DNA from: Escherichia coli
GTDB taxonomy: Bacteria > Pseudomonadota > Gammaproteobacteria > Enterobacterales > Enterobacteriaceae
DNA: 64,000 bases
Strand: one strand, 5' to 3'
Assembly: GCF_016903815.1 (NCBI RefSeq)
Contig: NZ_CP069973.1
The notes beneath the pieces are model-generated. The model did no database searches. It had not been told where the DNA came from and saw only the letters and a list, made by a program, of their open reading frames with translations. Positions 23,632-26,829 of this stretch are shown here, in pieces; the first letter of the stretch is position 1, and the number at the start of each line of letters is the position of its first letter. The translations under genes and the position numbers were made by a program.

Positions 23632-23799
23632 CGAATATTAACGAGTCACTGTAAATTGCAGTACGATAATGGCTTCCAGCACTGGAAGCCATTTTGCATG
23701 AGTGCCAGATTGAAGCTGATCTTCAGGAGCAGAAATAACCGAATCGTTTTTTTCGCAAAACACAGTTTTGAGTGATTCCGTTCAGTAATCAACGCTACG

Positions 23800-24060
23800 T
23801 TATTTATTCTCACGTTGCACGAGATTGTATCCCTTTTCACTAACGTGGTAGTGAGGCATAGACTTATTCCCGCTATCCTCAATAATAACCAAACCTTCGT
23901 TAGCTAATTTGTTAACAATGTTAACAACATTCCCGAATCCTGGAATTTGCCTTATGGATAGTGTGCGATCGAGATTCATCCAGTTCCAGTTTATATCTTT
24001 CTCAGTCATAACGTTCAGCACGTTAAGTTCATTTTTAGTGATCACGATATTCTGTACCAA
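23800..24060 (-). CDS. small winged-helix-like protein, paralogue 2; candidate immunity protein
   Basis: 86 aa; roughly 55-60% identical by eye to the neighbouring 85-aa ORF (shared IPGFGNV..NIV.KL...GLV core); AT-rich island. Confidence 0.55.
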   Translation of the reverse strand: MVQNIVITKNELNVLNVMTEKDINWNWMNLDRTLSIRQIPGFGNVVNIVNKLANEGLVIIEDSGNKSMPHYHVSEKGYNLVQRENK

Positions 24061-24119
24061 AATTGATGAGTATCTTATTGAAAGATCACAATGTAAATCA
24101 TGCTCCTGTAATGGCTGGA

Positions 24120-24377
24120 TCAGAAGAGGTTGTCTTGTTGTTCTTTGATAAGATTCAATCCATATTGAGAAACTCTGTAGCGTGGTCTAGAGTTGCCCTC
24201 ACCATTTACGATATCAACCAACCCATGATTAACCAGCTTTGTTACGATATTCGCTACGTTGCCAAATCCTGGAATATTTCGTATAGCTAAAGTACGATCC
24301 AGCACCATCCAGCTCCAGTCAATATCTTTCTCAGCCATAACTTTCAGCACGTTAAATTCAACTATCGTAATCGTCAT
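24120..24377 (-). CDS. small winged-helix-like protein, paralogue 1; candidate cognate immunity protein
   Basis: 85 aa; start overlaps the stop of the Hcp-extension gene (ATGA), implying translational coupling. Confidence 0.55.
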   Translation of the reverse strand: MTITIVEFNVLKVMAEKDIDWSWMVLDRTLAIRNIPGFGNVANIVTKLVNHGLVDIVNGEGNSRPRYRVSQYGLNLIKEQQDNLF

Positions 24378-25507
24378 TTTGTTGCATCCGGATGAAATAA
24401 GTCAGTATCTTTAATTTTAAAGTCTTCTAGAGTTGCAGTATGTACATTATTCCATAATTCATATCCATCTAAACCTTTCGGTTCACCTGTTTCCCATCCT
24501 AAATTACAATAACGCTGATACTCGCGACATTCATGAGTATAGTAGTTCAGATCGTATTTTTCAGGAAGCAATTCTTTATTTGCTATTTTCTTTAGCCTTG
24601 AAATCATTACATCATTAGCTGGATCATGATCAAATCTGGAGATATGCTTTTCAACAATAGCGATACCTTCCCTGTTGATTGTTACGCCATCTATCGTCAG
24701 GTTTTCAATTGGACCACCGGCAAGGTCGGGATTAAATGGTCTTCCTGATACTGCTCCTCTGGCTCCGAAATGCTCAAGTGATTCCAAATCAGGGAATCTC
24801 ATTCTTCCCAGAACAACTCCAGCAACTATTGAAGCACCAGCGATGAGTAACCCTTTGTTATCCATAACTTGATCGTAACCAGCAGGTGCATCTCCTCCCA
24901 ACTTGTTTGCTGTTTCCCTGAATCCTTCGATATTCCCATTGTATATGCCGCCAGCAGCAAGCAGTCTGCCAACCGCTTTACTATTGAGTGTTTTGAGGCC
25001 ATTATCATCTTTAGTTTTTGGCCGTGGTATAAACAGACGGTTGTAGTTATCGGGAAATGCCAAATAACTAAATTCAGTATTAGCAATCAGATGCCTGGAG
25101 AGTATATATTCATAACTGACAGTGATGGTTTCTGTATCCAGATTGTTCTCAGTAAACAGGTGATTGATTGCTGATAAGAGCGCGCCGCGAAGTTGAATGT
25201 TGTAATATTTCTCCCATCGACCAAATCTATTGATCCGATAGAAGTCAAACTCCATGAACAACTGCTCGTTATTGTTAATAGCGTTAATAAGTAACGGGGA
25301 GCTTTTGTCAATCAATTTACAGAAACTAAGGCCATGCAATTGTGACCCTTTGCCTGTATTCGTAATACTATTAGAGAGCGAGAACGCGAAGATTTCATCT
25401 TCATGGCCAATCTGCCAGCGATTACCTATTGATGCGCTCGTTCCACAACGAGAGGAAATACATCCTTGTTGTTCTCCGGTTATGTTCAGGTAAATAATAT
25501 CACTCAT
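24374..25507 (-). CDS. Hcp (T6SS tube protein) fused to a C-terminal extension: candidate 'extended Hcp' toxin
   Basis: 377 aa; N-terminal ~150 aa aligns by eye to Hcp (IYLNITGEQQG ~ IKGESKD; FCKLIDKSSPLL ~ FTKYIDKSTPNL; FYRIN ~ WYKIN); ~220-aa extension with a Gly/Ala-rich hydrophobic stretch and an unassigned C-terminal domain. Confidence 0.75.
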   Translation of the reverse strand: MSDIIYLNITGEQQGCISSRCGTSASIGNRWQIGHEDEIFAFSLSNSITNTGKGSQLHGLSFCKLIDKSSPLLINAINNNEQLFMEFDFYRINRFGRWEKYYNIQLRGALLSAINHLFTENNLDTETITVSYEYILSRHLIANTEFSYLAFPDNYNRLFIPRPKTKDDNGLKTLNSKAVGRLLAAGGIYNGNIEGFRETANKLGGDAPAGYDQVMDNKGLLIAGASIVAGVVLGRMRFPDLESLEHFGARGAVSGRPFNPDLAGGPIENLTIDGVTINREGIAIVEKHISRFDHDPANDVMISRLKKIANKELLPEKYDLNYYTHECREYQRYCNLGWETGEPKGLDGYELWNNVHTATLEDFKIKDTDLFHPDATK

Positions 25508-25898: not shown

Positions 25899-26711
25899 CT
25901 AATTCCGCTTCCCACCATACTGCTTAAACCACTCCAGCATACGCTGCCAGCCATCTTTCGCAGATTCGGCATGATAGCTCGGGCGATAATCGGCGTTGAA
26001 TGCATGCCCGGCATCCGGGTAGACGATAATCTCTGCTTTCGCATTAGCAGCCCGCAGCGCCTGGCGCATGGTTTCAACGCTCTCCTGCGGAATGCTGTTA
26101 TCCTGACCACCATATAAGCCGAGAACCGGCGCGTTAAGATCGGTTGCGATATCAACAGGTTGTTTCGGTGAATTCAGCGACTTATCGCCTGTCAGTTTGC
26201 CGTACCATGCCACCGCCGCTTTCAGTTGCGGGTTATGCGCAGCATACAGCCAGGTGATACGTCCACCCCAGCAGAATCCGGTGATCATTAAACGATGAAC
26301 ATCGCCGCCGTTGCGGGAAGCCCAACTGGCGACATGATCGAGATCGGCCAGCACCTGCGAGTCAGGCACTTTTGCTACCAGACCGCTAAGCAACGTGGGG
26401 ATATCGGCAAAATCATTCGGATCGCCTTCGCGGAAGTAAAGTTCAGGTGCAATAGCCAGATACCCCTCCAGCGCCAGACGGCGACAAATGTCGCGGATAT
26501 GTTCATGCACGCCAAAAATATCCTGCACTACAATGACCACTGGCAGTGGGCCATCGCTCTGCTTTGGTCTGGCATGGTAAGCAGGCATGTTATCCCCTTG
26601 TGAAGGGATAGAGGTGAAGCCCGCCACAATCGCGTCGTCCGGAGTCTGAACGATGGTCGAAGCGAGAGGCGATGCAGCAGGTGCAAATCCAGATTGTTGT
26701 GTTGTTGCCAT
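25899..26711 (-). CDS. ysgA: dienelactone hydrolase-family protein YsgA
   Basis: 271 aa from ATG at 26711 (MATTQQSGFAPAAS...); track ORF extends upstream in frame. Confidence 0.85.
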   Translation of the reverse strand: MATTQQSGFAPAASPLASTIVQTPDDAIVAGFTSIPSQGDNMPAYHARPKQSDGPLPVVIVVQDIFGVHEHIRDICRRLALEGYLAIAPELYFREGDPNDFADIPTLLSGLVAKVPDSQVLADLDHVASWASRNGGDVHRLMITGFCWGGRITWLYAAHNPQLKAAVAWYGKLTGDKSLNSPKQPVDIATDLNAPVLGLYGGQDNSIPQESVETMRQALRAANAKAEIIVYPDAGHAFNADYRPSYHAESAKDGWQRMLEWFKQYGGKRN

Positions 26712-26829
26712 GGTATTCTCCGTACCCTTATAAAAATGTTGCGCAATGTTAACTATAGTCAGCATGCAACAAATCACATTGCCTGAATCGGCTCATCTTT
26801 TATGCAGTCCTGCAGAATGAAGAGTGATT

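Follow-up and report, generated by a model that had tools for sequence, protein, structure and literature searches.

The locus lies within a window of 64,000 nt (the whole stretch of DNA that was analysed) from contig NZ_CP069973.1 of Escherichia coli. The setting is chromosomal, flanked by metR-metE and, at the opposite end, by ysgA-udp-rmuC-ubiE, and three genes form an island of approximately 2.2 kb between metE and ysgA. This metE..ysgA site is already known as a variable region of the genome, GR29 (PMC12928451). In genomes carrying the island the large gene is named tssD in RefSeq, and the two small genes, designated A and B in the following, are named "hypothetical protein". The features are given below in window coordinates, v1 and v2 being the two alleles of the island; loci collected for comparison are designated with L and a number.

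23668..23693, no strand: inverted repeat with perfect 12-bp arms (100% complementary) and 2 nt between them, located between the stop codons of metE and B
23800..24060, minus strand: gene B, 86 aa from TTG, or 81 aa from GTG at 24045; candidate orphan immunity gene, orthologue of the putative cognate partner of the v2 toxin
24061..24119, minus strand: A-B spacer, 59 bp, holding a sigma-70-like site
24097..24069, minus strand: sigma-70-like site in the A-B spacer, TTTACA-17-GATACT, 9 of 12 matches, from a consensus scan only
24120..24377, minus strand: gene A, 85 aa, ATG start; winged-helix fold, putative cognate immunity gene of the resident (v1) toxin
24045..24640, minus strand: allele-specific cassette, composed of a diverged toxin tip (24640-24377) and gene A with the spacer (24377-24045)
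24374..25507, minus strand: Hcp-toxin fusion gene, 377 aa, RefSeq tssD
25058..25507, minus strand: Hcp (TssD) tube-protein domain, residues 1-150; Pfam T6SS_HCP, E 4.8e-14; NCBIfam TIGR03344, E 2.8e-36
24803..25057, minus strand: linker or pre-toxin module, residues 151-235, with the hydrophobic stretch KGLLIAGASIVAGVVLGRM
24377..24802, minus strand: C-terminal toxin domain, residues 236-377 (142 aa), mostly helical

The two ORFs of 85 and 86 aa lie exactly where the original prediction had placed them, on the minus strand. The paralogy of about 55-60% claimed there was borne out by BLASTP, which aligned A and B without gaps over 80 positions with 47 identities (59%, E 3e-32), a similarity far above chance level. 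The core motif quoted in the prediction was likewise found in both proteins, as LDRTLAIRNIPGFGNVANIVTKLVNHGLV in A and LDRTLSIRQIPGFGNVVNIVNKLANEGLV in B, and the proposed overlap of the first ORF with the toxin stop was seen as a shared ATGA, formed by the ATG of A and the stop of the Hcp-toxin gene. RefSeq starts B at the GTG, which yields the 81-aa product. No obvious Shine-Dalgarno sequence was found before B in the window allele. Together with its GTG or TTG start and the 59 bp separating it from A, this makes the expression of B uncertain; the promoter-like site in the spacer could drive B independently. The inverted repeat is a probable bidirectional terminator at the end of the island operon. 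Neither A nor B contains a strongly hydrophobic stretch suggestive of a signal peptide.

The T6SS_HCP match covers residues 6-135 of the 377 residues of the fusion protein. Hcp-ET proteins are recognised by a C-terminal extension of more than 60 aa after the Hcp domain, and the 377-aa protein carries one, so by its architecture it is a predicted specialised T6SS effector of the Hcp-ET type. The hydropathy maximum is at residues 218-238, in the region joining the two domains. The linker of about 85 aa (GRLLAAGGIYNGNIEGF..GGDAPAGY..KGLLIAGASIVAG) has a TM-like hydrophobic stretch and was also observed in L016-L019 and L023-L027. It is 65-99% conserved in Hcp-fused and non-Hcp toxins bearing at least four different C-terminal domains, and it may be a pre-toxin or membrane-translocation module. 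The toxin domain had no match in Pfam, NCBIfam, PHROG, PADLOC or PDB sequences; in Pfam, this extension gave no match to HNH, DUF2235, Pyocin_S or colicin DNase. In the alignment of toxin domains H53, R56, N63, R69, D84, N86, H90, E91, R93, E94, R97, W117, H121 and H137 (domain numbering) are invariant. The domain was modelled as four helices and a hairpin, with a core pLDDT of 89-97, and none of the PDB fold matches listed for the model covers the toxin domain. Two assignments of activity were considered and rejected. An HNH nuclease, called to mind by the H...N...H spacing and by the NCBI fragment names "colicin" and "HNH endonuclease", was unsupported by profiles or model, and was discarded since the conserved residues sit on two long helices and not on a beta-beta-alpha finger. 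A cysteine protease or papain-like toxin was put aside since the conserved Cys92 is replaced by Leu in several members.

The AlphaFold model of the small protein was a confident winged helix (pLDDT 88), similar to RosR, PadR and MarR. The suspected winged helix-turn-helix thus found support in structure prediction; the regulatory role which the original prediction left open on these grounds shares the fold, and support for it beyond the fold was not found. Only one helix follows the wing in the 85-aa model, and the dimerisation helices of MarR-type proteins (MarR has about 140 aa) are absent. Neither A nor B matched Pfam at E <= 0.001 or any NCBIfam model, and nothing above threshold was found in PHROGs, PADLOC or PDB sequences. 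Across 29 family members, all matches to PadR, MarR and EarA were sub-threshold, and one member reached E 9e-4 to the generic HTH_45; a broad family profile showed weak sequence similarity to MarR/PadR (E 2e-4 to 1e-2). The family is small: in a set of 1.84 billion proteins, 62 representative clusters matched at E <= 1e-3. Almost all members are stand-alone proteins of 75-105 aa, and a W-x-W motif is near-invariant. Among the papers retrieved by accession, by the metE/ysgA locus and on winged-helix immunity, none described the family. The toxin domain was also modelled as a fusion to A through a (GGGGS)6 linker, from a block alignment with nine paired rows. The model gave a pTM of 0.72, an uncontrolled value with no interface read-out, and residues 143-170 (28 residues, mostly the added linker) had pLDDT below 50. 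Since this pTM is above expectation for two independently placed domains, the model hints at a defined complex.

The island was found in 857 of the 5,426 complete E. coli genomes, in every case chromosomal and in single copy. Gene A was present in 729 complete genomes and a B-type sequence in 848. The difference, 119 genomes without A, equals the number with B identity in the band of 90-95%. These were assigned to a second allele, v2, from the examples examined within the group. In strain WL297 this allele encodes an Hcp fusion of 382 aa followed by a single gene, 85% identical to B at the amino-acid level and overlapping the toxin stop by 11 nt. The two alleles were compared by a sliding-window DNA alignment of the window against L015. 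The DNA identity was 96-100% over the promoter region, the Hcp domain and the linker, as far as about 24640, whereas the last approximately 80 codons of the toxin (24640-24377) were only 56-82% identical. Gene A and the spacer (24377-24045, about 330 bp) are exclusive to the window allele and missing in v2, and across B the identity is again about 95%. No detectable remnant of the displaced toxin tip was seen between A and B in the allele alignment. As far as DNA comparison goes, this pattern is the signature of cassette exchange in polymorphic toxins.

There were two consequences of the allele structure. Firstly, v1 differs by its toxin tip together with A ahead of a retained B, which suggests that A is cognate to the resident toxin. 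Secondly, the v2 toxin is directly followed by a single B-type gene, which points to B as the partner of the rival allele, kept in v1 as an orphan. The specificities of A and B are what we infer from the structure of the alleles alone. The earlier idea that one copy guards against a variant toxin agrees well with a variant allele at the same E. coli locus whose single downstream gene is of B type, and the question it raised, whether other genomes carry one or both copies, is answered by the counts above, with v2 genomes carrying the B-type gene alone. Its description of the genes as tandem duplicated holds in so far as two paralogues are adjacent, but is slightly misleading, because the arrangement reflects a cassette replacement with the older immunity gene retained: a cassette of toxin tip and A upstream of a pre-existing B, and not a local duplication.

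In strain NRG 857C, codon 98 of the toxin gene is TAG (W98*), and both A and B are intact, each with a single amino-acid substitution. The site corresponds to window positions 25214-25216, where TGG is kept, and to L013:4085-4087. Exact matches to the TAG allele were found in at least 257 complete genomes of E. coli, those of Nissle 1917 and the type strain ATCC 11775 among them, and exact matches to the TGG allele in at least 533. STEC genomes carried degraded v2 alleles, with frameshifts and an IS3 insertion, in which the B-type gene was intact. That both small genes are kept after loss of the toxin fits protective immunity, and does not fit a dedicated regulator or chaperone of that toxin.

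Outside E. coli, loci were gathered from four sources: contigs with A homologues, a scan of species-representative genomes, contigs with homologues of the toxin domain, and contigs with distant members. Homologues of A occur across Enterobacterales and often bear the NCBI name "MarR family transcriptional regulator". In every occurrence examined the toxin domain was followed by an adjacent family member, usually with a 4-nt overlap. These were E. coli v1, v2 and STEC, Lonsdalea, Enterobacter, Pantoea, a Phytobacter-like metagenome, the metagenomic contigs L026 and L027, Salmonella salamae (where the member is a pseudogene), L029 and L031-33; L028 probably has an adjacent member likewise, judged from resemblance by eye alone. 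An overlap with the toxin stop was also seen in L018, L019, L023, L026, L027, L029 and L032. The pairing persists on three carriers, Hcp, a domain of about 145 aa, and PAAR, with the small protein down to 25-30% identity. At the PAAR locus, an effector with a DcrB/Eag-type chaperone matched the toxin profile at its C-terminus with E 2e-68, and the gene after it is only about 25% identical to A. In L031-L033, toxin fragments (E 4e-40) are followed by a family member matched at E 1.6e-5. At least three toxin subtypes were distinguished, each with its own small-protein subfamily: A-like, B-like, and a type of 89-92 aa that occurs in Cronobacter. The comparative data, from the alleles and from the linkage to the toxin domain, support the original suggestion of immunity genes after a polymorphic toxin, as a predicted function. 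Among nine cognate pairs, the identity of the toxin core was correlated with that of the adjacent small protein (Mantel r 0.93, p 1e-4), and of the two the small protein diverged faster; the correlation is supportive and is not independent evidence, as it is expected for co-inherited, tightly linked neighbours.

Several details of these loci deserve mention. In Lonsdalea, Enterobacter, Pantoea and the Phytobacter-like contig the carrier consists of the N-terminal domain of about 145 aa and the same linker. This domain (MLHHYQAKSL...YLEDIP...) was observed at L018:4958-5400, L019:4928-5400 and L023:4928-5400, with further copies at L024:4693-5100, L027:306-698 and L008:3957-4350; it had no match in Pfam, NCBIfam or PDB sequences, and could be an Hcp-cargo or another delivery domain. 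The most divergent toxin homologue, L028:13-1103, is 60% identical and has a HELRE motif. The protein downstream of it has at least 186 aa, with an N-terminus that by eye resembles a distant winged helix, fused to an extra C-terminal domain. In Salmonella enterica subsp. salamae (L025:156-1080), an Hcp-linker-toxin protein has H90P in the invariant YYTHE motif, and the family member downstream is a pseudogene with stop codons, which looks like joint decay of the toxin and its putative immunity gene.

Family members without this toxin directly upstream were found as well; most of them come at the end of arrays, behind other toxins, and a few stand alone. Citrobacter and Kosakonia arachidis have such arrays, in which the other toxins share the Hcp or linker scaffold but are accompanied by immunity genes of their own, unrelated to the family; the pairs ahead of the family member include a classic HNH together with a YrhA-family protein, a colicin-D-like domain, and an Imm35 gene. 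In Kosakonia sp. S29 the member comes directly after an immunity-like gene and no toxin, with IS remnants and an integrase adjacent. Cronobacter and Pseudescherichia have toxin-less tandem pairs, and Brenneria a lone single copy. The pairs at L006:5001-5511 (Cronobacter) and L021:5929-6595 (Pseudescherichia) consist of an A-like gene and an 89-92-aa paralogue, 31-36% identical to A, and in L027 a gene of the 89-92-aa type is cognate to the third toxin subtype. Judged from gene content, the Cronobacter and Pseudescherichia pairs are putative orphan immunity arrays. The Citrobacter loci were considered as instances of the same tandem pair and rejected: by tblastn, only the second gene is A-like, and the first, of 84 aa, is unrelated and the partner of another toxin domain. 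At L005:1154-3254 (Citrobacter), a second Hcp fusion of 401 aa lies upstream of the first, giving two Hcp-toxin modules in tandem; after the 401-aa fusion come a gene of 85 aa, an Imm35 gene and a B-like orphan that shares 75% identity with B.

We consider it likely, at roughly 85%, that A is the immunity protein for the resident toxin and B the one for the toxin of the rival allele, both belonging to a winged-helix family with a T6SS toxin as partner. The Hcp tube subunit, joined through the linker to a toxin domain acting in the cytoplasm, would be a type VI "specialised Hcp". Gene A, translationally coupled to the Hcp-toxin gene, would encode the cognate immunity protein, and we infer that it binds and blocks the toxin domain both in the producing cell and in its sisters. 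B would be the immunity gene of the second toxin allele circulating in E. coli, left downstream when recombination swapped the toxin tip and brought in A. With A cognate and B directed to the other allele, and provided that B is expressed, a strain with the window allele would withstand its own toxin as well as attack by neighbours carrying the other one. The minimal winged helix, from MarR/PadR-like ancestors, would here serve as a protein-binding scaffold. Some points count against immunity: the net charge of A and B is near zero, unlike that of the acidic immunity proteins of many nucleases, the fold is that of DNA-binding regulators, and the broad family profile has the weak similarity to MarR/PadR given above. 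The pI of the family spans 4.4 to 9.9 across members, an uninformative range, and charge and pI were dropped as discriminators.

The fold and the names are the reasons for seeing in A and B ordinary MarR/PadR-type regulators with no role in immunity. "MarR family transcriptional regulator" is the name given to many homologues and to a truncated E. coli copy, and a winged helix is compatible with such a function. No Pfam or NCBIfam model reaches threshold, the small genes swap together with the toxin tip, the same toxin domain precedes them on three unrelated carriers, they take the last-gene position in toxin/immunity arrays, and the family is tiny beside the true MarR and PadR families; on these grounds we regard plain regulators as very unlikely. 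Still less probable, and the least likely of the readings weighed here, is that A and B are adaptors or chaperones needed for loading the Hcp-toxin fusion or for its stability. Both are small and cytoplasmic, their genes adjoin a T6SS effector, and the fused toxin-A model is compatible with a predicted complex of that sort. Adaptors would be expected to track the delivery domain, whereas the small genes go with the toxin domain, whether its carrier is Hcp, PAAR or the domain of about 145 aa; the PAAR locus already has its DcrB/Eag-type chaperone upstream, and orphan copies persist both with no effector and after inactivation of the toxin.

A and B might also do both, neutralising the toxin and, in the manner of type II antitoxins, using the winged helix to bind DNA and so autoregulate the Hcp-toxin operon. 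We find this improbable. The residues of helix 3 (NVANIVTKLV) are for the most part hydrophobic or neutral, B has a wing that is not basic, the 85-aa proteins have no counterpart of the additional dimerisation helices found in MarR, the search for an operator-like palindrome upstream of the operon gave only AT-rich imperfect repeats, which are not convincing, and the promoter region is 96-100% identical in alleles with different sets of small genes. In its fullest form, in which a lineage of winged-helix transcription factors turned to immunity and still binds DNA, repressing the operon when free and releasing it on titration by a toxin whose mostly helical fold and whose activity would both be new, the idea strikes us as a shade less improbable, and would, if true, mean that DNA-binding immunity proteins couple immunity to expression, as type II antitoxins do. 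The reading of A and B as cognate and orphan immunity proteins is thus the preferred one, and it places the locus in a known kind of system, a T6SS effector with cognate and orphan immunity, made up here of an uncurated winged-helix family and an uncharacterised toxin domain.

The closest arrangement is that of the Hcp-ET/ETI modules of Enterobacteriaceae, in which, in the account of Ma et al. (2017) given in PMC6730261 and PMC6099711, an Hcp with a C-terminal toxin is followed by downstream immunity genes. The window locus is similar, an orphan island outside the T6SS cluster with an Hcp-toxin gene and one or more small putative immunity genes downstream. Multiple immunity copies are reported in that account for Hcp-ET3-4; the window pair differs from such repeats as a presumed cognate gene and an orphan for a rival allele, and not copies of one immunity gene. 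The immunity proteins of the Imm-NMB0513 family (Pfam DUF596), which belongs to polymorphic toxin systems, have a wHTH fold and conserve two tryptophans (Zhang et al., 2012, PMC3482391). By analogy it is a precedent for the winged helix as an immunity protein, and its tryptophans recall the W-x-W of the A/B family. A and B had no Pfam match to DUF596, the structure 2O5H was absent from the sequence matches and from the fold matches listed, and, the partner toxins of Imm-NMB0513 being Ntox20 and Ntox7, the toxin here had no Pfam match beyond Hcp. As in the displaced cassettes of Rhs, CDI and T6SS toxins, a new tip with its immunity gene stands upstream and an older immunity gene is kept downstream, and immunity-only loci persist in strains with no working toxin; unlike in those cassettes, no toxin-tip remnant is detectable between A and B, and the carrier is Hcp and not Rhs or CdiA. 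From MarR, PadR and RosR the small proteins differ in their length of about 85 aa, in scoring below the family thresholds, and in behaving in genomes as the partner of a toxin. The immunity proteins of the colicin DNases, Im7 and Im9, are about 85 aa long, are encoded directly after the toxin gene, and occur as related alleles of differing specificity in one species. A and B resemble them in size, in gene position after the toxin, and in the existence of toxin/immunity alleles within a species. Im7 and Im9 are four-helix bundles, in contrast to the winged helices of A and B, and no sequence relationship between them was found.

Approximately one sixth of the complete E. coli genomes have the island, including ExPEC lineages and the probiotic Nissle 1917 with its nonsense allele of the toxin. 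Reading the small genes as immunity genes would correct widespread labels such as "MarR regulator" and "hypothetical", and would define an uncurated pair of toxin and immunity families on Hcp, PAAR and a further carrier domain. The v1 toxin with A and the v2 toxin with B would make a natural two-allele system for immunity specificity and orphan protection in the competition of gut strains.

Two minor observations concern the flanks of the island. In B2 strains, sugar genes resembling hxlB-ptsG-tkt follow the island (L013:4863-7075 in NRG 857C), and not directly ysgA, as in the window (25900-26780). In STEC, a 40-aa "hypothetical protein", WP_001230617.1 (L012:1624-1746 and L014:1624-1746), is annotated over the region of the metE terminator hairpin, and is probably spurious and not a gene.
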